DNA of 64,000 nucleotides from Candidatus Vogelbacteria bacterium (GTDB lineage: Bacteria > Patescibacteriota > Minisyncoccia > Phycocordibacterales > XYD1-FULL-46-19), in the NCBI GenBank assembly GCA_016188295.1, contig JACPIA010000003.1:30-64029 (forward strand), read 5' to 3'. Positions 7,293-61,639 of this stretch are shown piece after piece; position 1 is the stretch's first letter; the number at the start of each line of letters is the position of its first letter. A program made the translations under genes and the position numbers. The notes under the pieces are model-generated. The model made no database searches, had not been told where the DNA came from, and saw only the letters and a list, made by a program, of their open reading frames with translations.

Positions 7293-7535
7293 TTATTTGG
7301 TATAAAACTTATCCCTTAATTCATCTTCCGATACAAATTTACTAGTCTGATTAAAAATCGCTTTTAAAGTACCCCTATCAATATCTCTATGATTAGGGAC
7401 AGTCAGTATTTGAAAACCAAAATCAGTTTCCCTTCTCATCTTGATGTGACTACCTCTTTGTTTAGCAACAATAAAACCAAAGCCCTCAAGAATTTTGATG
7501 ACTTCTTTTTGAGAGAGCCTTTTTAATTTAGGCAT
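7293..7535 (-). CDS. hicA: type II toxin-antitoxin system HicA family toxin
   Basis: 80 aa with the KEVIKILEGFGF...RGSHIKM...TVPNH pattern typical of HicA/YcfA mRNA interferases. Confidence 0.8.
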   Translation of the reverse strand: MPKLKRLSQKEVIKILEGFGFIVAKQRGSHIKMRRETDFGFQILTVPNHRDIDRGTLKAIFNQTSKFVSEDELRDKFYTK

Positions 7536-7755
7536 ACGACAACTGCGGGAGTTCGAAATTCAATAAGACAGACGGCGAGTTGGTAAAACCTAAAGACTTG
7601 GCATTTTCGTCCTCAAAATGGAGTTCTACCGCCTCCTTTATATTTAGAGCCAGCTCATCAAGCGTTTTACCTTGAGTCACAATAGCCACATCAACCCCTT
7701 CGGCGACATAGTATTTTTCCCCTTTAGAGATATGAAATTGGATGATATTTTTCAT
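7528..7755 (-). CDS. hicB: HicB-family antitoxin (UPF0150 N-domain only)
   Basis: 75 aa with YYVAEGVDVAIVTQGKTLDEL...IKEAVELHFED. Overlaps hicA by 8 nt. Confidence 0.7.
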   Translation of the reverse strand: MKNIIQFHISKGEKYYVAEGVDVAIVTQGKTLDELALNIKEAVELHFEDENAKSLGFTNSPSVLLNFELPQLSYA

Positions 7756-8435: not shown

Positions 8436-10229
8436 TTAATTACTGTCGGCCCTCATCATTTGTAAAAAAACATTATCAGGGATCTCCACCGAACCGCGCG
8501 CTTGCATTTTTTTCTTCCCTCTCTTTTGTTTTTCGCGCAACTTCATTTTGCGAGTGATATCACCACCATACAAGTAACCGGTAACATCTTTACGGAGAGC
8601 GGATAAAGTTTCTGAAGAGATAATCCGTCCCAGCGCTTGAGCTTGGATTTTAACCGCGATTAATTGTCGTGGCAATAATCTAGCTAATTTTTCCACCGCC
8701 ACTTTAGCCTCATGCTCCACTTGGCGTCGCGCCACTACCCGCGAAAAAGCGGCCACGATTTCGCTATTAACTAACACATCGAGGCGCACTACCTCCGCCG
8801 GTTGCCATTCCCCAATCCGGTATGAGAGCGAAGCGAAGCCGGAGGAAATACTTTTTAATTTATCAAAAAAGTGGCGCATTAACTCACGAAGTGACATATT
8901 AATCGTCAATGCCGTTCGACCAGCCGACCAATTGTCGGTATTTATAATAATTGCTTCATGTTCATAAAGAAGTGGCATAATCGCCGCCAAATACTCCGGC
9001 GGTGTAATCAACGTTACTGTCACCCACAACTCACGGATCGAGTAATTTTTGGTCTCTTCAGGAAAGCGAGTTGGCGAGTAAATAAGAGCGGTCTCACCGG
9101 TAATATTATTAGTGACCTCATAACTGATGGTTGGTGTGGCCACAATCAGAGTTAAGCCAAACTCTCGTCGCAAGCGCTCGGTAATAATCTCCAAGTGGAG
9201 CATACCAAGGAAGCCAATTCTAAAACCCCGCCCTAAAGCGCCAGACGACTCCTCCTCAAAGGTAAAAGCTGAATCCGAGAGGTTGAGCCGCTCTAAAGCC
9301 TGTTTAAGAACCGGGAAGTCATCCTGACTCTCCGGATACACCGAAGCCCAGACCACCGGTCGAGGTTGCTCATAGCCCGGTACAGCCGGTAGAGCTTCTC
9401 TACCGGTTAAGGTATCACCCACATGGGCCAAACCTGGCTTTTTAAGTCCAGTGACAATGTAACCGATTTCACCCGCTTTTAGGGCCGTAGCTGGGGTACG
9501 TTCGGGAGCAAAAAAGCCAACTTCGCCTACTACACAACCCTCACCACTACCTACAAAATGGAGGATATTACCAGCTGTTAAGATGCCATCTAAGACTCTT
9601 ACGTACACGATCACACCTCGATGAGTAGAATATTCAAAATCAAACACTAAAGCTCGCGAGCCATTGGGTACACTGTCGACCGGTGGTGGTACTCGCTTCA
9701 CAATCTCAACCAATAATTCATCCACGCCCGCGCCGGTTTTACCGGACACCGCTAAAATAGTGTCCGGATTTACTTCCAATAATTTAGCAACCTCGGTTCG
9801 TACCTCCTCGACTCGGGCAATTGGTAAATCAATTTTATTAAGCACAGGAATAATAGTAAGGTCGAATGTTCGAGCTAACGACAACACTGATAAAGTTTGC
9901 GCCTGTACGCCCTGTGTCGCATCAATCAATAAAATGACTCCTTCTACTGCCTGCAAGGCTCGCGATACTTCGTACGAAAAATCAATATGTCCCGGCGTAT
10001 CAATTAAATTAAATTCATAAGTCTCCCCTTGATGCCGATAGCTCATTCGCACCGGCTGCATTTTAATAGTAATCCCCCGCTCGCGCTCCAAGTCCATCCG
10101 GTCTAAGACTTGATTCTTCATCTTACGCTGTTCAATCGTTCCGGTACGCTCAAGGAGCCGGTCAGCCAAAGTGGACTTACCGTGATCAATGTGAGCAATA
10201 ATACTAAAATTTCTAATCTTCTCCGCCAT
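8436..10229 (-). CDS. lepA: translation elongation factor 4 (LepA)
   Basis: N-terminal NFSIIAHIDHGKSTLADRLL with the G1-G4 GTPase motifs and the LepA C-terminal domain. Confidence 0.9.
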   Translation of the reverse strand: MAEKIRNFSIIAHIDHGKSTLADRLLERTGTIEQRKMKNQVLDRMDLERERGITIKMQPVRMSYRHQGETYEFNLIDTPGHIDFSYEVSRALQAVEGVILLIDATQGVQAQTLSVLSLARTFDLTIIPVLNKIDLPIARVEEVRTEVAKLLEVNPDTILAVSGKTGAGVDELLVEIVKRVPPPVDSVPNGSRALVFDFEYSTHRGVIVYVRVLDGILTAGNILHFVGSGEGCVVGEVGFFAPERTPATALKAGEIGYIVTGLKKPGLAHVGDTLTGREALPAVPGYEQPRPVVWASVYPESQDDFPVLKQALERLNLSDSAFTFEEESSGALGRGFRIGFLGMLHLEIITERLRREFGLTLIVATPTISYEVTNNITGETALIYSPTRFPEETKNYSIRELWVTVTLITPPEYLAAIMPLLYEHEAIIINTDNWSAGRTALTINMSLRELMRHFFDKLKSISSGFASLSYRIGEWQPAEVVRLDVLVNSEIVAAFSRVVARRQVEHEAKVAVEKLARLLPRQLIAVKIQAQALGRIISSETLSALRKDVTGYLYGGDITRKMKLREKQKRGKKKMQARGSVEIPDNVFLQMMRADSN

Positions 10230-42819: not shown

Positions 42820-43476
42820 ATGGGTTTATTATATCACATTAAGGAATGGATTAATGACTTACTTTTTCCCGACTACTGCTTGGGTTGTGATCGTGCTGAT
42901 GAAATACTGTGCGCTGATTGTGCTGGACACTTACCGGTGGCGGGGCCCGCCGAGGATGACACCTGGGCCTTATTTGATTATCATCAGCCGCTGACTAAAA
43001 AATTATTGTGGCGTTTAAAATATAATGGCAAACAGCGGATTGGGTGGCGTTTAGGTCAACTGGCCGCCGAAAAATGGTACGAAGATTTGGCCGAGATAGT
43101 ATTGATGACTGGTGAACAAAAATTGATTATTGTGCCAATACCACTCGGCACTAGACGTTTACGCCAACGGGGCTTTAATCAAGCCTTAAGCATTGCCGCC
43201 GGTCTTCACGAACACACTCGTGATTTAACGGAATTGTTGCCGGATAGTCTAAAAAGAATTAAAGAAACAGGAAGTCAAGTCAAAACCACTAGTCGCACTG
43301 AAAGATTAAAAAATTTAAAAGACGCGTTTGGTGAGGTGAACCCGACGATCAAAAATAAAGTGGTGTTGTTGATCGACGACACCACCACCACTGGAGCGAC
43401 CATGCAAAGCGCCGCCCTTGCGTTGTCGCGGGGCGGCGCTTCTCGAGTAATCAAATTAGCAATCGCTCGCGGCTAA
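42820..43476 (+). CDS. comFC: ComF family protein (phosphoribosyltransferase domain, competence ComFC-like)
   Basis: N-terminal zinc-finger CLGC...CADCAG and a C-terminal PRTase motif VVLLIDDTTTTGATM. Confidence 0.75.
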   Translation: MGLLYHIKEWINDLLFPDYCLGCDRADEILCADCAGHLPVAGPAEDDTWALFDYHQPLTKKLLWRLKYNGKQRIGWRLGQLAAEKWYEDLAEIVLMTGEQKLIIVPIPLGTRRLRQRGFNQALSIAAGLHEHTRDLTELLPDSLKRIKETGSQVKTTSRTERLKNLKDAFGEVNPTIKNKVVLLIDDTTTTGATMQSAALALSRGGASRVIKLAIARG

Positions 43477-43486
43477 TTAAATTTAA

Positions 43487-43741
43487 TTAGGATAAATGCT
43501 TGGAAACAAGTTTAGTCATCTCAAACATGGAAACAGTCCCTTTTCCCCCAAAAACTGCTTTGAGTTTAGCGTCAGCATTGATATTGCGCTTATTACTAGG
43601 GTCTTGAAGATTATTGCCTTTGATGTACACCCATAACTTTTTGACCACCTCGGAGCGGGGCATTGGGCCCTTGCCTATCACTTCAGCTAACTCATCACTA
43701 ATCTGCATTGGCTTCATAAAAGCCGAATTACCTTTTGGCAT
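43487..43741 (-). CDS. SWIB/MDM2 domain protein
   Basis: ISDELAEVIGKGPMPRSEVVKKLWVYIKGNNLQDP pattern. Confidence 0.7.
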   Translation of the reverse strand: MPKGNSAFMKPMQISDELAEVIGKGPMPRSEVVKKLWVYIKGNNLQDPSNKRNINADAKLKAVFGGKGTVSMFEMTKLVSKHLS

Positions 43742-43821
43742 GTTTATTTAAATTAACGATTATTAAGACTACTTTTTCTCCTGCCAGCCATTATACCCTA
43801 TGTAGCCCTAGAGAGCAATCT

Positions 43822-43925
43822 GCGGTGTATTCTTAAAATAGCTCGAACGGAATTCTGTTCTCGCCCGCCTGCGGCGGGCTCGGGTCGGGAGGGCAAAAAA
43901 TCCGTGCGGCTTTGCCGCAAAAATT
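43822..43925. repeat. GC-rich inverted repeat A-prime (inverted copy of 44839-44942, about 99% identity)
   Basis: gcggtgtattcttaaaatagctcgaacggaattctgttctcgcccgcctgcggcgggctcgggtcgggagggcaaaaaatccgtgcggctttgccgcaaaaatt. Confidence 0.85.
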
Positions 43926-43964
43926 AACAATTTCAAGTTTTTCTTTGGCGGCAATTTAAAAATT

Positions 43965-44729
43965 TTAGAGACAGGGAACTGAAGAAAAATCCTGGTGACC
44001 TCGATTAAGTTGGCATCGTTGAGTAACTGTCGCATTTCCTAGTGTCCAAACATTATTGTTGTAATACGCAGATGCAACTTTTTTCTGTGCACTAACAGAA
44101 TCGTCTCGCATTCCTTCGTATATTGCAGTTACAGCGTATTGACCATTGTTGTTTTGGACACTGACGGTAACTGATCCACAAGTGTCAGGCGTACAACCGC
44201 CCCAATTCCGCAATACAAGAGTCCGAGCTTGTTCCTGAGTAAAAGTGGGTGTAGCAGATGTGATTGTAAAGTAATTATCAGAAACATCTTCAAGTTCTTG
44301 ACCAACAGTGACCGCTAATTTGTATCGTCCTGCTGGAATATCTACTGGAATGGTAACTGTTTTTACGCCATTATTTGGAGCATCAGTCCAACTGCTAACT
44401 AAATCTCCGTTGTTCAAATGTTTTCCGTCAGCTGTGTCCAAATGAATCCAAATACCAGCGGTAGAGGCAACATTTTTGGTTTGCCATTTGATTGTTATTT
44501 GATTTCCAGTCGTGTATGTTTCCCCGCCGTTCGGGGAAAGTAGAGTAATCGAACCATTGGCAAATTGCAGACTACCATCTTTCCCTCCCGCGCCACCAGT
44601 TGTCTTAATGCCTGGCGTAGGCGACAGCTGTTGATTGGACTTCAACATAAAATATCCGGCTATCCCCAAAACAACAACGACTAACACAATGAGCGCTATG
44701 ATTATATTTGCAAAACCTTTTTGATTCAT
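43965..44729 (-). CDS. hypothetical exported/membrane-anchored protein
   Basis: 254 aa with an N-terminal TM (IIIALIVLVVVVLGIAGYF) and a Gly/Thr/Asn-rich extracellular region. Bracketed by inverted repeats A-prime and A. Confidence 0.55.
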   Translation of the reverse strand: MNQKGFANIIIALIVLVVVVLGIAGYFMLKSNQQLSPTPGIKTTGGAGGKDGSLQFANGSITLLSPNGGETYTTGNQITIKWQTKNVASTAGIWIHLDTADGKHLNNGDLVSSWTDAPNNGVKTVTIPVDIPAGRYKLAVTVGQELEDVSDNYFTITSATPTFTQEQARTLVLRNWGGCTPDTCGSVTVSVQNNNGQYAVTAIYEGMRDDSVSAQKKVASAYYNNNVWTLGNATVTQRCQLNRGHQDFSSVPCL

Positions 44730-44838
44730 ATTTATAAATTTATTAGTTAATAATTTTTATGACTTTATGAAAAAATTTCTTTTGCCCTTCCAAAATATGG
44801 TCCGAGCCGATTTGTTTTCAGGTTCTTTGGCAGCTTGG

Positions 44839-44942
44839 AATTTTTGCGGCAAAGCCGCACGGATTTTTTTCCCTCCCGACCCGAGCCCGCCGCAGGCGGG
44901 CGAGAACAGAATTCCGTTCGAGCTATTTTAAGAATACACCGC
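44839..44942. repeat. GC-rich inverted repeat A (central copy)
   Basis: Reverse complement of 43822-43925. Contains sub-hairpins tgcggcaaagccgca and gcccgccgcaggcgggc. Confidence 0.85.
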
Positions 44943-45043
44943 AATTCAGGATTTCGCAAGTGGAAAGATGATGCCGAGCGGCGCGAAACGCGCCGCTCGG
45001 CTAGAATTTGAAAGGGCTTTTCGGGCGAAAAGGAAAAGGATTT
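44939..45043. repeat. GC-rich inverted repeat B (central copy, contiguous with A)
   Basis: Reverse complement of 46462-46566. Contains the perfect hairpin gccgagcggcgcg aaa cgcgccgctcggc. Confidence 0.85.
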
Positions 45044-45093
45044 ATCAATGAAGGGCAAAAGAAAATTTTTATCAATTTTAATCAAACAAAAAC

Positions 45094-46617
45094 ATGAAAT
45101 ACATAATCTATGCGAGAAAATCTACCGAGAGCGAGGAACGACAAATCATGTCTATTGAATCCCAGCTTTCTGAATTAAAAGAATTTGCCGCCAAAGAAAA
45201 ACTTGAAATTGTTGCTTCGCTTTGCGAAGCCCAAACTGCCAAAGAACCTGGGCGAATTAAATTCGCTGAAATGTTGTCATTTCTGGAGAGTGGAAAAGCA
45301 GACGGAATTCTCTCTTGGAATCCAGATCGTCTCGCCCGAAATTCCATAGACGGAGGACAGATTATCTATATGCTGGACACAGGAAAAATTAAGGACTTAA
45401 AATTTCCGACTCATTGGTTTGAAAATACACCGCAAGGAAAATTTATGCTGAACATTGCATTTGGGCAAAGCAAATACTATGTAGATAATCTAAGTGAAAA
45501 TATCAAACGCGGACATAGAGCAAAATTAAGAAAAAGCATTTGGCCCGGCTTTGCCCCGCTTGGCTACACCAACAATCATAAAACGCGAGATATTGATGTT
45601 GACCACGAAAAAGCTCCGTTCATACGAAAGGGTTTTGAATTGTATGCGACTGGAAAATATACGCTAAAACAGATTGCAAAAATTCTCAAAGATTTAGGAT
45701 TGCGAAGCTACAAAGGAAATGTCCTTTCAGTTTCCTGTGTCCAGCGATTTTTGCAGAATCGATTTTACTACGGACTGTTTGAATTCAAGGGCGAGACGCA
45801 TCAAGGAACGCACGAGCCAGTTATCACGAAGAAACTTTTTGATAAATGTCAGGAAGTTATGAAGGATCGCGGACATATTAAAACGAGAAAAGCAGAGAAA
45901 ACTTTTCCATTTCGCGGATTACTCGCTTGCGGAGAATGTAGTTGCGCTATTACTGCCGAGACACAAAAAGGTCATAACTATTATCGTTGCACGAAAAAGA
46001 AAATCGCTTGTTCGCAAAAATATGTCCGCGAAGAATTACTAACGGAACAAGTAAAAAGTTTTCTTCAAAAAGTTTCTTTATCGAGCCAAGACACCGAAAA
46101 AGTTTTGCGTGAGCTGGACAAAGACGAGCAGAAAGCAAAAGCGAGTAGTTTCGTAATCGTTCAAAATCTGAAGAGTGAGTTATCCGACATCGGCACAAAA
46201 TTGAATAAATTACTTTCTGCGTATCTCGACGAGATAATTACTTCGGAAGAGTATGCCACGCAAAAACAAAAAATGCTCTCACTCAAAATAGAGTGTGCGG
46301 AAGAAATCAGGGAAATTGAAGATGGAATTGTGTCTTGGCTCGAACCGGCTCGTGCGTGGATTAAATCCTTAAATCAAGCAGAGAAACTGCTTTCCTCTGG
46401 GGATAAGTCGGAAATGACAACATTTCTAAAACAAAACGGCTCGAACCATATTTTGATCGATAAATCCTTTTCCTTTTCGCCCGAAAAGCCCTTTCAAATT
46501 CTAGCCGAGCGGCGCGTTTCGCGCCGCTCGGCATCATCTTTCCACTTGCGAAATCCTGAATTGCGGAAGGGGAGGGATTCGAACCCTCGAGAGACTTTTA
46601 CATCCCTACCTCGTTAG
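45094..46617 (+). CDS. large serine recombinase (resolvase/invertase N-domain plus recombinase domain plus zinc ribbon plus coiled-coil)
   Basis: N-terminal IIYARKSTESEERQIMSIESQ catalytic-Ser region, recombinase domain and zinc ribbon CGECSC...YYRCTKKKIAC, 507 aa. The last ~50 codons read through repeat B-prime into the tRNA-Ser flank. The true C-terminus is probably near 46460. Confidence 0.8.
   Translation: MKYIIYARKSTESEERQIMSIESQLSELKEFAAKEKLEIVASLCEAQTAKEPGRIKFAEMLSFLESGKADGILSWNPDRLARNSIDGGQIIYMLDTGKIKDLKFPTHWFENTPQGKFMLNIAFGQSKYYVDNLSENIKRGHRAKLRKSIWPGFAPLGYTNNHKTRDIDVDHEKAPFIRKGFELYATGKYTLKQIAKILKDLGLRSYKGNVLSVSCVQRFLQNRFYYGLFEFKGETHQGTHEPVITKKLFDKCQEVMKDRGHIKTRKAEKTFPFRGLLACGECSCAITAETQKGHNYYRCTKKKIACSQKYVREELLTEQVKSFLQKVSLSSQDTEKVLRELDKDEQKAKASSFVIVQNLKSELSDIGTKLNKLLSAYLDEIITSEEYATQKQKMLSLKIECAEEIREIEDGIVSWLEPARAWIKSLNQAEKLLSSGDKSEMTTFLKQNGSNHILIDKSFSFSPEKPFQILAERRVSRRSASSFHLRNPELRKGRDSNPRETFTSLPR
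46462..46566. repeat. GC-rich inverted repeat B-prime, abutting and overlapping by about 3 nt the 3-prime end of tRNA-Ser(GCT)
   Basis: aaatccttttccttttcgcccgaaaagccctttcaaattctagccgagcggcgcgtttcgcgccgctcggcatcatctttccacttgcgaaatcctgaattgcgg. Confidence 0.85.
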
Positions 46618-46652
46618 CAGTGAGGCGCTTTCGACCACTCAGCCACCCCTCC
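46564..46652 (-). tRNA. tRNA-Ser (anticodon GCT)
   Basis: Reverse complement GGAGGGGTGGCTGAGTGGTCGAAAGCG...ctGCTaa...long variable arm...GGTTCGAATCCCTCCCCTTCCG. Confidence 0.8.
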
Positions 46653-46663
46653 ATTGATTGTCA

Positions 46664-46915
46664 CTACTTTATACTCTCTATCAACAAAAACTTCAACCTT
46701 TCTTTTCCTTTGCCAGTCTTGAGAAACAATTCCTCTCTACGTGCATCTTTTTCTGATACAAAAGCTTGATAATAAACCAATTTCCACGGGCCATTATTAC
46801 TGGTAAATTTACTATTACCTAACGAGTGTTCTTTAACTCGTCGCTTTAAATCAGCAGTAAAACCTTTGTATAATTTATTATTTCTCAAGCTTCTTAAAAC
46901 GTAGACATAATACAT
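46664..46915 (-). CDS. GIY-YIG nuclease superfamily protein (UPF0213-like)
   Basis: MYYVYVLRSLRNNKLYKGFTADLKRRVKEH is a GIY-YIG motif. The start is trimmed to the internal Met. The track ORF is 46664-46993. Confidence 0.7.
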   Translation of the reverse strand: MYYVYVLRSLRNNKLYKGFTADLKRRVKEHSLGNSKFTSNNGPWKLVYYQAFVSEKDARREELFLKTGKGKERLKFLLIESIK

Positions 46916-47044
46916 AAATTGTCCACTCTCAGCCCTAGGCTGATCGGCCTTGGGCCGAAGCCACCCCTCCGTATTACTGCAACACACCGGCAATTTAACA
47001 CATCTAGAGCAGTAAGGCTAGCTTAAAATTTAACACAAAATTAA

Positions 47045-47072
47045 CCCGGCGATGTGTACCCGCATCGCCGGG
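47045..47072 (-). terminator. candidate intrinsic terminator (minus strand)
   Basis: CCCGGCGATGtgtacccgCATCGCCGGG followed on the minus strand by TTAATTTTGTGTT. Confidence 0.4.
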
Positions 47073-47074
47073 TC

Positions 47075-47332
47075 TTAGATTGAGAATTCTTGGTTGTTTT
47101 CAAAACGGTTAGCAAAATCAGTTGCGCCACCATTTCGAATAAAATGCATCACAGCCTCGTTATCGCTTGGCGGATGCTGGAGAGCAATACCTGCAAACCA
47201 GCGATTCTCCGGCCCGAGCGCTTCCCGCTTCTGTACCTCTAAGAATTGTCTCAACCCTTCTGGTGTCCTACGATCAATTGGAGTTGACATGACTCCCCTC
47301 CTTTGTGACCGTTCCTGTCTCCAACATACCAT
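47075..47332 (-). CDS. hypothetical small protein (GC-rich)
   Basis: 85-aa ORF with GC content above the local background. The true start is possibly MSTPIDRR. No known domain. Confidence 0.3.
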   Translation of the reverse strand: MVCWRQERSQRRGVMSTPIDRRTPEGLRQFLEVQKREALGPENRWFAGIALQHPPSDNEAVMHFIRNGGATDFANRFENNQEFSI

Positions 47333-47424
47333 TTCTTAATTATTTGCAAACCAACTAATCCACACCTCCATTTTAAATCAATAATCATTTATTTTATCTC
47401 TTATTGCCCCTTCTTCATCCCTTT

Positions 47425-47469
47425 CAATTGTACCATCTTCCAGTGATCACGTTTACTTGGTACAATTGA
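47425..47469. repeat. P3 palindromic direct repeat, left copy (caATTGTACCAtcttccagtgatcacgtttactTGGTACAATtga)
   Basis: 10-bp perfect inverted arms AATTGTACCA/TGGTACAATT around a 22-nt core containing GTGATCAC. A second copy lies at 48070-48113. Confidence 0.8.
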
Positions 47470-47475
47470 TCTAAA

Positions 47476-48051
47476 ATGAAACATAAAACCAATAACATTA
47501 AAAGGGTTTATAGCCCCATGAAGCAAAAAATAATACTTTTACTTCACGCCGGCATTGCCTTATCCTTAACTCGTACCGCTAAAAAACAAATCTATCTTTT
47601 AAAAACCACACATCGAAAATGGCAAAAAATCGAAAAAAGAAAGCTTTATCGCTTAATTCGTGAATTTCACCATGAGCGACTAGTTGATTGGCGAGAGTAT
47701 AATGATGGTAGTATTAGCATCACCTTATCTCAAGCTGGCAAAAAACTAGCGCAAAAATTTGATTTTGATAATATGACTCTTCCGCAATCAGGACGATGGG
47801 ATAGGAAATGGCGAGTAGTGATGTACGATATTCCTCAACCAAAACAGGCTACTCGTGATGCTTTAAGGTCAAAATTAAAAGAATTAGGTTTTAAAGAATT
47901 CCAAAAATCCGTTTTCATTTACCCCTACTCTTGTTGCGATGAAATCAATTTTATTATTGAATTTTTTGATATTAGACCATATGTCACCTTTGGTGAGTTA
48001 GTTAATCCAACCAATGAAGCTTCATTAAAAATGAGTTTTGGTGTTAAATAA
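47476..48051 (+). CDS. wHTH plus Cas2-like (Cas2/VapD-fold) domain protein, paralog A (PaaX-like architecture)
   Basis: C-terminal RWRVVMYDIPQPKQATRDALRSKLKELGFKEFQKSVFIYPY matches the Cas2 core pattern (hhhYDh..kr..kv.k.L...G.r.Q.SVF). The N-terminal roughly 100 aa is a basic helix-rich domain. About 45% identical to 58811-59374. Confidence 0.55.
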   Translation: MKHKTNNIKRVYSPMKQKIILLLHAGIALSLTRTAKKQIYLLKTTHRKWQKIEKRKLYRLIREFHHERLVDWREYNDGSISITLSQAGKKLAQKFDFDNMTLPQSGRWDRKWRVVMYDIPQPKQATRDALRSKLKELGFKEFQKSVFIYPYSCCDEINFIIEFFDIRPYVTFGELVNPTNEASLKMSFGVK

Positions 48052-58810: not shown

Positions 58811-59374
58811 ATGAGAAGTAAACCCAAGAACATCCATAGCCCTCTAAAACAGAAGGTGCTTACTCTCTTGCTGGCTGGTACCGCCTTGGGACTAACCCGA
58901 TCCTACAAAACCCAAAAGAGAATCTTAAAATCCATACCTAGAACCTTGAGGGATATTGACCGGGGCTATCTGTACCGTATTCTTGATGAATTTAATAACA
59001 ACCGATTAATTGACTGGAAAGAAAAAGCTGATGGTTCTATTTGTTTGATCATTACCGAAAAAGGCAAAGAAACCGCTCTTCAATTTAACCCTGATTTTCT
59101 TAAAATCAAACGACCGCCCATTTGGGATAAGCGTTGGCGAGTAGTTATTTATGACATCCCCGATAAGAAAAAGAGCGCCCGTGACGCCCTACGATACAAA
59201 TTAAAAGAGCTCGGTTTTAAAGAGTGGCAGAAATCTGTTTTTATCCATCCCTACCCTTGTCTCAATGAAATTAACTTTACTGTCGAATTTTTTGATGTCC
59301 GGCCTTATGTCCGTTATGCCGAACTAATCAATCCAACCAATGAAGCGGAGCTTAAACTACATTTCAAAATCTAG
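58811..59374 (+). CDS. wHTH plus Cas2-like domain protein, paralog B
   Basis: C-terminal RWRVVIYDIPDKKKSARDALRYKLKELGFKEWQKSVFIHPYPCLNE is the Cas2-like core. Paralog of 47476-48051. Bracketed by inverted P2 elements. Confidence 0.55.
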   Translation: MRSKPKNIHSPLKQKVLTLLLAGTALGLTRSYKTQKRILKSIPRTLRDIDRGYLYRILDEFNNNRLIDWKEKADGSICLIITEKGKETALQFNPDFLKIKRPPIWDKRWRVVIYDIPDKKKSARDALRYKLKELGFKEWQKSVFIHPYPCLNEINFTVEFFDVRPYVRYAELINPTNEAELKLHFKI

Positions 59375-61353: not shown

Positions 61354-61430
61354 GCGCGTGTAGCTCAGGTGGTTAGAGCGCGTCACTGATAATGACGAGG
61401 TCGTAGGTTCGAGTCCTACCATGCGCACCA
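61354..61430 (+). tRNA. tRNA-Ile (anticodon GAT), CCA encoded
   Basis: GCGCGTGTAGCTCAGGTGGTTAGAGCG...ctGATaa...GGTTCGAGTCC...CATGCGCACCA. Candidate promoter TTGTTT-17-TATAGT lies upstream. Confidence 0.85.
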
Positions 61431-61639
61431 AAACTAACTTTGTCGGAAATGACTGCTCCGCGCGGCGAGTACGCCGCGCTCCGCAGGGCAAAATCCGCTC
61501 CTCTTTCCTAATCCTGAAAATGTCTCTACTGGTGCTGTAATTCTACACTTTGCGCGAACCTTTTTCGAACGGAAACTGAACGAAACTCACCGCGGGTTTC
61601 TCAAAGTTGTTCATTCGTAAACGAAAGGAGGTGAGAACT

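Follow-up and report, generated by a model that had tools for sequence, protein, structure and literature searches.

The window analysed here is a 64-kb stretch of a metagenome-assembled genome (MAG) of 'Candidatus Vogelbacteria', and its region 43821-46566 carries a gene for a 507-aa large serine recombinase (LSR) next to an intact tRNA-Ser(GCT) gene, together with a gene for a 254-aa exported protein. Each of the two protein genes is bracketed by a long inverted repeat, the exported-protein gene by the arms A' and A and the recombinase gene by the arms B and B'. The inner arms A and B meet in a central block, where they share the overlap CCGCA (44939-44943), and B' overlaps the 3' end of the tRNA gene by 4 nucleotides (nt). 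As set out below, we conclude that this region is probably an integrated 2.75-kb mobile element, driven by the LSR and inserted exactly at the 3' end of the tRNA gene. A first-pass annotation of the sequence had described this layout and left two readings side by side, a tRNA-targeting integrative element and an invertible two-segment switch. Its A'/A repeat of ~105 bp was recovered as described, and the bracketing of the two genes was borne out by the open reading frames (ORFs) and their Pfam matches, as was the contact between B' and the tRNA. The B/B' repeat turned out longer than claimed (44939-45052/46453-46566 rather than 44939-45043/46462-46566), a further inverted match of ~31 bp (44789-44819/46426-46456) was found as one of ~28 nt, and the short inverted ends by the central block and the perfect hairpins within the repeats were both present. 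Blastn found no other copy of A or B in the window, so the repeats are not a dispersed element. The features of the locus, including short patches (p, q, r, x) whose inverted copies (p', q', r', x') adjoin the arms, are as follows:

43821-43925, unstranded: A' arm, the inverted copy of A (105 nt, 99% complementary); distal end of the element and putative attR, at the junction of flank and A'; read on the plus strand in the recombinase frame, it would hold the detached last ~35 recombinase codons
43919-43905, minus strand: terminator-like hairpin of the A' arm
43925-43927, plus strand: TAA stop of the recombinase frame, straddling the boundary of A' and x'
43926-43957, unstranded: patch x', the reverse complement of 45182-45213 (32 nt, 97%; recombinase nt 89-120), abutting A'
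43965-44729, minus strand: cargo gene for the 254-aa exported protein, in the variable cargo arc, with the same direction as the tRNA
44770-44838, unstranded: contiguous patches p' (44770-44790; inverted match to p in the recombinase leader, 45050-45070, 95%, GAAGGGCAAAAGAAA), q' (44791-44818; inverted match to q, 46428-46455, recombinase nt 1335-1362, ~28 nt, 93%) and r' (44819-44838; reverse complement of 45231-45250, recombinase nt 138-157)
44839-44943, plus strand: A arm of the internal attP-like site, putative P-type half-site
44845-44859, plus strand: terminator-like hairpin of the A arm
44916-44923, plus strand: T-loop mimic GTTCGAGC in the A arm, with the core CCGCA at 44939-44943
44939-45052, plus strand: B arm of the internal attP-like site, putative P' half-site and inverted copy of B' (114 nt, 98% complementary); it starts with a conserved GGAxxxxGCAAG-type motif and contains the perfect GC hairpin GCCGAGCGGCGCGAAACGCGCCGCTCGGC (44973-45001, 29 nt)
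45050-45070, plus strand: patch p, in the recombinase leader, 24-44 nt upstream of the ATG
45094-46617, plus strand: LSR ORF as read in the integrated state, with the body at 45094-46452, a B'-encoded tail at 46453-46566, and the last 17 codons and stop from the antisense of the tRNA gene
45182-45213 (x), 45214-45230 (palindrome h), 45231-45250 (r) and 45268-45283 (g): segments inside the LSR ORF
46411-46426 (g*, the reverse complement of g) and 46428-46455 (q): segments in the 3' part of the LSR ORF
46453-46566, plus strand: B' arm, tRNA-proximal end of the element and putative attL, at the junction of B' and tRNA; codes for the recombinase tail
46504-46532: terminator-like hairpin of the B' arm
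46563-46652, minus strand: tRNA-Ser(GCT), intact, the putative target, whose T-arm and acceptor 3' strand would form a B-type half-site; the crossover would lie within its last nucleotides (CCGCA)

The patches fit tightly against the arms, with zero spacer at the junctions A'/x', r'/A, p'/q' and q'/r' and a 3-nt overlap at B/p and q/B', and p' sits as far upstream of the cargo ATG on the other strand as p does of the recombinase ATG. The pairs x/x', r/r' and g/g* were absent from the first-pass annotation. The hairpin in each arm is oriented toward the arc which that arm bounds. Of the 15 perfect inverted pairs of at least 14 nt and at most 1.6 kb apart in the whole window, a count that includes local hairpins, 10 fall in this locus. 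A sigma-70 promoter scan of the central block gave nothing over background, and an Rfam search over 43000-47500 at E<=1 matched the tRNA and no other known RNA family.

The recombinase has the domains Resolvase (PF00239), Recombinase (PF07508) and Zn_ribbon_recom (PF13408), all above the Pfam cut-offs, and Ser10 in YARKSTESEE, the position of the nucleophilic serine, is nearly invariant across the homologue alignment. Members of the family measure ~490-525 aa and share this LSR architecture; similarity to solved or curated LSRs (A118/LI, SPbeta, CcrB, XisF) was remote only (PDB E ~1e-6), NCBIfam model scores were far below cut-off, and exact look-ups of the window's recombinase and cargo proteins matched no record. 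IS607-family elements encode a small serine transposase with an N-terminal helix-turn-helix (HTH) and a C-terminal catalytic domain. We rejected an assignment to this family, as the score with the NCBIfam IS607 model was 23 bits, where 110 are required, and the domains come in the reverse order. A phage integrase family was also considered and set aside, as relatives are rare in viral contigs, with 4 close recombinase matches in IMG/VR, all at contig ends.

Homologues of the recombinase number more than 7000 proteins, and 592 of 600 scanned stretches, taken from contigs of one genome per species, encode a relative of it. The hosts are mostly Patescibacteria, with a few Omnitrophota, Margulisiibacteriota and others. 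We scored the layout in 48 loci with a complete gene and enough flank, and the A/A' pair in the 39 of them with at least 2.5 kb upstream. A convergent tRNA lay within 200 nt downstream of the recombinase in 38 of the 48 loci, the B/B' repeat was present in 43, and A/A' was found in 23/39, at a distance of 0.9-5 kb. Within a locus the arms had a median identity of 100% for both pairs, and arm sequences differed between loci; in several loci the arms had decayed to 82-93% identity, from which it follows that arm identity is not maintained everywhere. Inverted copies of p, q and r (and x) were seen at the same relative positions in 25-28 loci. The tRNAs concerned span at least 12 amino-acid identities and include five Ser isoacceptors, Leu, Gln, Arg, Phe, Val, Met, Lys, Asn, Pro, Glu and Tyr. 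A full-text literature search, whose coverage is incomplete so that a prior description is possible, found no description of such elements, and we are thus apparently dealing with an undescribed, large and stereotyped family of serine-recombinase elements in Patescibacteria.

The evidence for integration comes from the junctions. Read on the tRNA strand, those of the window are tRNA..CTTCCGCA/ATTCAGG.. (into B), A..ACACCGCA/ATTCAGG.. (into B) and A..ACACCGCA/GATTGC.. (into the flank), the flank beyond A' being the upstream region of a SWIB gene. The same three-junction pattern, with identical arms, was found in the window and about two dozen related loci. The shared core measured 1-11 nt, mostly 3-11, and up to 18 in one locus, and consisted of the final nucleotides of that locus's tRNA, often N73 plus CCA; the flank sequences were unrelated from locus to locus, and the tRNA stays whole after insertion. 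By sequence, then, tRNA/B is shown to behave as an attL, the central A/B as an intact attP, and A/flank as an attR. That A/B corresponds to a complete copy of attP was a point missing from the first-pass annotation.

The conserved part of the A arm points to how the target would be read. Its last ~35 nt are conserved family-wide (..GAAATGCGTTCGRACTAATTCAAGAATACTG plus the core) and contain a T-loop-like GTTCGA. In 20 of 21 loci the distance to the core is exactly 5 nt greater for the GTTCR in A than for the T-loop in the adjacent tRNA, and the same 5-nt shift was present in 12 further loci, including a divergent subgroup, giving 32 of ~34 overall. In large serine integrases, the second DNA-binding domain (DBD2) binds motifs that are set 5 bp further inward in attB than in attP (PMC11722253). 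As the 5-nt shift fits this rule, A is by its sequence a P-type half-site that mimics the T-arm, and the tRNA the B-type half-site. The other half of attB, i.e., the flank, is, judged by these junctions, free of sequence specificity. Since the T-arm is universal, such recognition would also account for the wide range of tRNAs, with target specificity predicted to rest on the few core nucleotides, which covary with the tRNA end. Thus, the domain architecture, the short shared core with exchanged arms and the 5-bp shift between P and B were all found, as for an LSR element.

The recombinase frame runs across this site. From residue 453 up to the tRNA it was free of stops in 54/54 loci, whereas the other two frames were open in 12/54 and 16/54, and we therefore could not uphold the earlier view that the C-terminal read-through is an artefact of the repeats. 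In the homologue alignment, residues stayed conserved across B' and gave way to 'RDSNPR'-type stretches, which are tRNA T-arms translated in antisense. Since no in-frame stop precedes the tRNA, the stop codon of the integrated state comes from host DNA. We then modelled the circle junction in 24 loci by joining B' to A', using the internal copy in reverse for the sequence. The ORF entered A' in all 24. In 10 of them the codon at which it ended straddled the A'/x' boundary, and in 7 others the end was at most 18 nt away from it; in the divergent group it ended shortly past a conserved ..[IL]x[KE][IL][VA]RTxF.. segment. Together, these sequence comparisons place the att core inside the recombinase gene, ~10-70 codons before its natural stop, so that integration splits the gene. 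This genuine crossing of the att core by the ORF is likewise new relative to the first-pass annotation, the interpretation of which was partly supported overall.

A circle with two inverted attP copies is the simplest form that yields the observed layout on integration. The free form would thus be a circle in the order [A B], recombinase arc, [B' A'], cargo arc. Integration would proceed through the attP copy embedded in the ORF, with the tRNA T-arm read as a B-type half-site, and the empty attB is expected to have the tRNA-Ser 3' end joined directly to GATTGCTCTCTAGGG. The last codons of the recombinase would then be detached to the far end of the element, and the gene body would read into the tRNA in antisense. 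The nested repeats would follow from this arrangement, B'/B being the arm of attL against the internal attP and A/A' the internal attP against the arm of attR. The internal inverted A/B copy may serve as a spare attP and a spare 3' end, and a rare B/B' flip could restore the full-length gene. Finally, the patches by the arms and helices within the gene (see below) might give the recombinase transcript folds that depend on the integrated or free state. These steps beyond the att-site logic are our suggestions from sequence.

Given the long, near-perfect inverted repeats around both segments, we also considered a phase-variable inversion switch, in which exchange between A and A' or B and B' would flip the cargo or the recombinase relative to their promoters. 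In two loci, L068 and L046, the recombinase arc was indeed in the opposite orientation, with the layout tRNA, B, leader, recombinase, B'A'; here the gene lies directly downstream of the tRNA, is co-directional with it and regains its natural 3' end, as expected if a flip restores the natural end of the ORF. However, in ~55 of 57 loci the recombinase was convergent with the tRNA and both arcs kept the same orientation at 50-88% protein identity, x' always abutted A', and p'q'r' always abutted A. Three independent assemblies of one element were collinear, the arms that have decayed to 82-93% are not being continuously homogenised in those loci, and the junctions follow the logic of integration. 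No coexisting orientations were seen, and the enzyme, as an LSR, is no Hin/Gin-type invertase, which would have ~190 aa and a C-terminal HTH. With 2 of ~57 loci flipped, routine switching did not hold up, and conservation of the arrangement across distant relatives, which the first-pass annotation had itself named as speaking against a switch, is what we found. We regard the switch reading as very improbable. The fixed orientation under the integrated-element reading may, as a speculation, arise because copies in the silent, split state are those that survive.

The cargo arc is extremely variable and usually holds one gene, co-directional with the tRNA. The window's cargo protein has an N-terminal hydrophobic segment and a weak Kre9_KNH Ig-like match; the cargo of other loci comprised restriction-modification, DUF262-like and HNH proteins, dehydrogenases, a NirK-like copper protein, methyltransferases, NUDIX and secreted proteins. 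The cargo of L007 (397-3039) is a complete type II restriction-modification module with a Vsr-like endonuclease, a C5 cytosine methyltransferase, a putative endonuclease and an HTH regulator. Even among close relatives at tRNA-Ser(GCT) the cargo was not constant. Two close relatives, with recombinases 80% (L100) and 86% (L104) identical to that of the window, carried a methyltransferase, at tRNA-Ser(GCT), and only a distant Ig-like protein, respectively.

Elements were also found stacked. Both L048 and L003 retain the remnant of an older recombinase, diverged and with its B', and directly after it come A', cargo, A, B, recombinase, B' and tRNA; in L009 and L022 older A'/x' remnants lie further outward. 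The order of these copies indicates that a newer element inserted at the occupied tRNA end and displaced the older one outward, and stacking at an occupied tRNA fits an attB whose far half lacks sequence specificity. Together with the junction logic and the 5-bp T-loop shift, these outward-pushed copies strongly support the tRNA-targeting integrative element that the first-pass annotation had offered as one of its two readings. In L074, tRNA-Ser(GGA) and 60 nt upstream of it are duplicated 5.7 kb apart (1702-1845 and 7464-7607, 96.5% identity), on either side of the element plus extra DNA; the copies may reflect a duplication of the target or mark another, older site of insertion.

Repeated insertion at an occupied tRNA could also have built the locus from two independent units bounded by terminal inverted repeats and inserted sequentially at the tRNA end, namely, an IS-like recombinase unit running from B to B' and a non-autonomous cargo unit running from A' to A, each of which would circularise to a palindromic att site. 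Each unit does have its own inverted ends, and many metagenome contigs consist of just B, recombinase and B'; short contigs of this kind are, however, expected from assembly breaks at repeats. The recombinase unit was never seen without an A arm immediately left of B, the patches keep their fixed places beside A' and A, and the P-type T-loop mimic at +5 in 32 of ~34 loci extends to the divergent group. Furthermore, the ORF runs from B' into A' to a conserved stop, which makes a single functional unit of B'/A'. We therefore regard the two-unit origin as quite improbable and favour a single element.

The recombinase gene is also strongly self-complementary. Compared with dinucleotide shuffles, the minimum free energy (MFE) of its RNA had a z-score of -6.2 for the window's coding sequence (CDS) and -8.3 for the antisense strand, and values of -3.7 to -10.8 were obtained for seven homologues, whereas the neighbouring genes gave -0.6 and -0.5 and the cargo gene +0.15. 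Perfect helices of at least 14 nt recurred at nested positions (175-190:1318-1333, ~375:675, ~390:585, ~720:1245, ~735:987 and ~1065:1230), and at least two helix pairs covary (CG to TA and TA to GC). These intragenic helices, with q'/q and r'/r, could form a three-way junction; in the circle form, pairing of x with x' would enclose the entire message. The p/p' pairing spans the leader from 14 to 44 nt ahead of the ATG, the p module precedes the cargo ATG as well, and the divergent subgroup has other patches, with a leader again complementary to segments of the CDS. Taken as its reverse complement, the cargo arc has the order r q p C x, which matches that of the recombinase arc after circular permutation. 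In L008, two inverted copies of nt 87-154, with x, h and r contiguous, lie ~1240-1307 and 2228-2284 nt upstream of the recombinase start; as x' and r' are split by the cargo in typical loci, these copies may represent an intermediate in the origin of the patches.

Could folding, then, be the main role of the repeats and the duplication of att arms secondary? Either single-stranded DNA, e.g., after natural transformation, could pair A' with A and B with B' into a duplex attP, or transcripts could fold and silence the recombinase. The MFE scores, the conserved nested helices with their covarying pairs and the leader-CDS complementarity in both subfamilies, at different positions, are in line with this, as are the patches that abut the arms without a spacer, much as in perfect three- and four-way junctions. 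On the other hand, the pairings, taken all together, cross one another topologically and cannot coexist, both strands fold equally well, no G:U strand bias was seen beside the perfect cores (27 GT versus 34 AC), and the att logic accounts for both long repeats without folding. A primary folding role is in our view unlikely. Topology-dependent folding of the recombinase transcript is kept as a working interpretation within the integrated-element model, and a role of single-stranded DNA is conceivable as well; the extreme self-complementarity itself is robust.

Several observations weigh against the integrated mobile element as we describe it. Two equivalent attP copies predict insertion in both orientations, and the observed 55:2 can be reconciled with this only by assuming something more, e.g., that an isomer whose intact recombinase lies downstream of the tRNA is selected against. 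The conserved peptide encoded by A' (..VRT.F) is a translation of the conserved DNA half-site, and a protein-level function of the tail is thus putative, as the conservation of the peptide could be that of the half-site. A single pseudoknot-free fold of all patches was rejected, since the chords cross on either strand. No directionality factor candidate was evident, the element's ORFs being recombinase and cargo only. No excised circle was found, and the 'circular' L007 scaffold was discarded as a free circle, since an integrated copy gives the same cycle in the assembly graph and the scaffold has an N gap in A/B. The exact pattern of tRNA end plus flank had 0 matches in metagenome contigs. 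The first-pass annotation had proposed to look in related genomes for the tRNA-Ser locus without the element; in the closest relatives, either the genes are in another order or the contig ends at the site, and none gave a clean empty attB. In the ComF-neighbour relative L081, the contig breaks 30 nt into A'. In L082, whose ComF is 72% identical, a tRNA-Ser(GCT) with 98% identity has the reverse orientation with respect to the SWIB gene and is followed, at 9375-9515, by GC-rich arm-like sequence and the contig end, which suggests a rearrangement around an occupied tRNA.

Since the window comes from a MAG and assembly breaks at the repeats are very frequent in contigs of this family, a chimeric path through the repeat graph has to be considered as well. 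The same architecture was, however, present in more than 40 independent assemblies produced by different assemblers, including contigs of 0.77 Mb and 1.8 Mb, and tandem copies of the repeats differ (~91% identity), as collapsed duplicates would not. The probability of an assembly artefact is accordingly negligible. Assemblies from the Candidate Phyla Radiation (CPR) often end inside an A or B arm (e.g., L002, L014, L021, L024, L054, L057, and L081) or consist of B, recombinase and B' alone, and the element family is a systematic cause of contig breaks in CPR MAGs.

Among known systems, the element is of a familiar kind, an LSR integrative element; what is unusual is the T-arm mimicry, the split ORF, the retained inverted attP and the extremely structured gene. 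With large serine integrases (A118/LI, SPbeta, phiC31, CcrAB of SCCmec, XisF) it shares the order of resolvase, recombinase and zinc ribbon with coiled coil, the short shared core and the 5-bp DBD2 shift between attB and attP. It differs from them in that it targets the extreme 3' end of many tRNAs through a T-loop mimic, in that only one attB half-site is sequence-specific, in the inverted attP and the ORF spanning the core, and in its size of ~2.5-7 kb with one or few cargo genes.

For the predicted folding, lambda sib retroregulation and IS10/IS50 fold-back offer a pure analogy. In those systems, element topology or the start point of transcription decides whether the message of the recombinase or transposase is paired. 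In the present element, x' is found immediately past attP and p', q' and r' in the upstream leader, and the perfect duplexes are far more numerous and longer. In the yeast 2-micron plasmid and plastid-type circles, two inverted repeats part a circle into two unique arcs. The putative free circle resembles these, with a site-specific recombinase in one of its two unique arcs, but it is without replication functions, its recombinase is a serine enzyme, and its repeats would be att sites for chromosomal integration.

The split gene recalls the SSV1-type 'suicidal' integrases of archaea, in which the att site lies within the integrase gene, a tRNA is the target and the ORF is split on integration (PMC8371274). 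The recombination site is within the recombinase ORF here too, and tRNA integration would split it. However, the SSV1-type enzymes belong to the tyrosine recombinases, and their genes are split around the middle. The present enzyme is a serine recombinase that would lose its last ~10-70 codons, and the lost end has an inverted spare copy immediately 5' of the gene. Tycheposons of Prochlorococcus and other marine bacteria are small cargo elements beside tRNAs that stack at the tRNA-proximal end of an island; 474 of 501 have tyrosine recombinases, and partial tRNA copies are left as repeats (bioRxiv 10.1101/2020.12.28.424599). The present family resembles them in tRNA adjacency, cargo and stacking, but it has an LSR and a core of mostly 3-11 nt, and nested inverted repeats or an internal attP are not described for tycheposons.

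Patescibacteria have tiny genomes, and their gene exchange is poorly understood. With thousands of proteins and hundreds of species representatives, this abundant family may be a main route for accessory genes in CPR, delivering restriction-modification and other defence-like genes, enzymes and surface proteins, usually one cassette each, to tRNA ends. A natural LSR that recognises the tRNA T-arm would be a clean illustration, in sequence, of the 5-bp attP/attB rule and a serine-recombinase counterpart of the archaeal 'suicidal' integrases. The compact, programmable-looking att sites, whose core covaries with the tRNA end, could interest genome engineers, and the family explains a recurrent assembly break in CPR MAGs. 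A broader view, which we hold to be rather unlikely, is that these elements are minimal 'gene-cassette shuttles' of ultra-small CPR bacteria, a class not recognised before, that combine an LSR reading the universal T-arm as half of its target, a self-splitting gene, an inverted spare attP and 3' end from which a single flip would rebuild the gene, and a message or single-stranded DNA folded by topology-dependent perfect helices. If so, the nested repeats and patches would be a built-in state sensor, possibly with a duplex attP self-assembled from single-stranded DNA acquired by competence.

Elsewhere in the window, a GIY-YIG nuclease-family ORF (46664-46993) lies directly beyond tRNA-Ser, on the side opposite to the element, and a PaaX-central/Cas2-like ORF (47476-48051) slightly further on. 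The latter resembles, by eye, a lone 187-aa gene (58811-59374, plus strand) that is surrounded by a perfect 29-nt inverted repeat, ATTCCTCCCAAAAATACGCTATCGCGTAT (58757-58785/59411-59439). The 3' end of tRNA-Ile (61354-61430) is followed by TCGGAAATGAC and a GC-rich hairpin, GCGCGGCGAGTACGCCGCGC (61431-61500), similar to the start of the B arm. A second element at this site was considered and rejected, as the B-like motif and hairpin come without a recombinase, inverted repeats or a cargo structure; the sequence may be a scar or a mere terminator.

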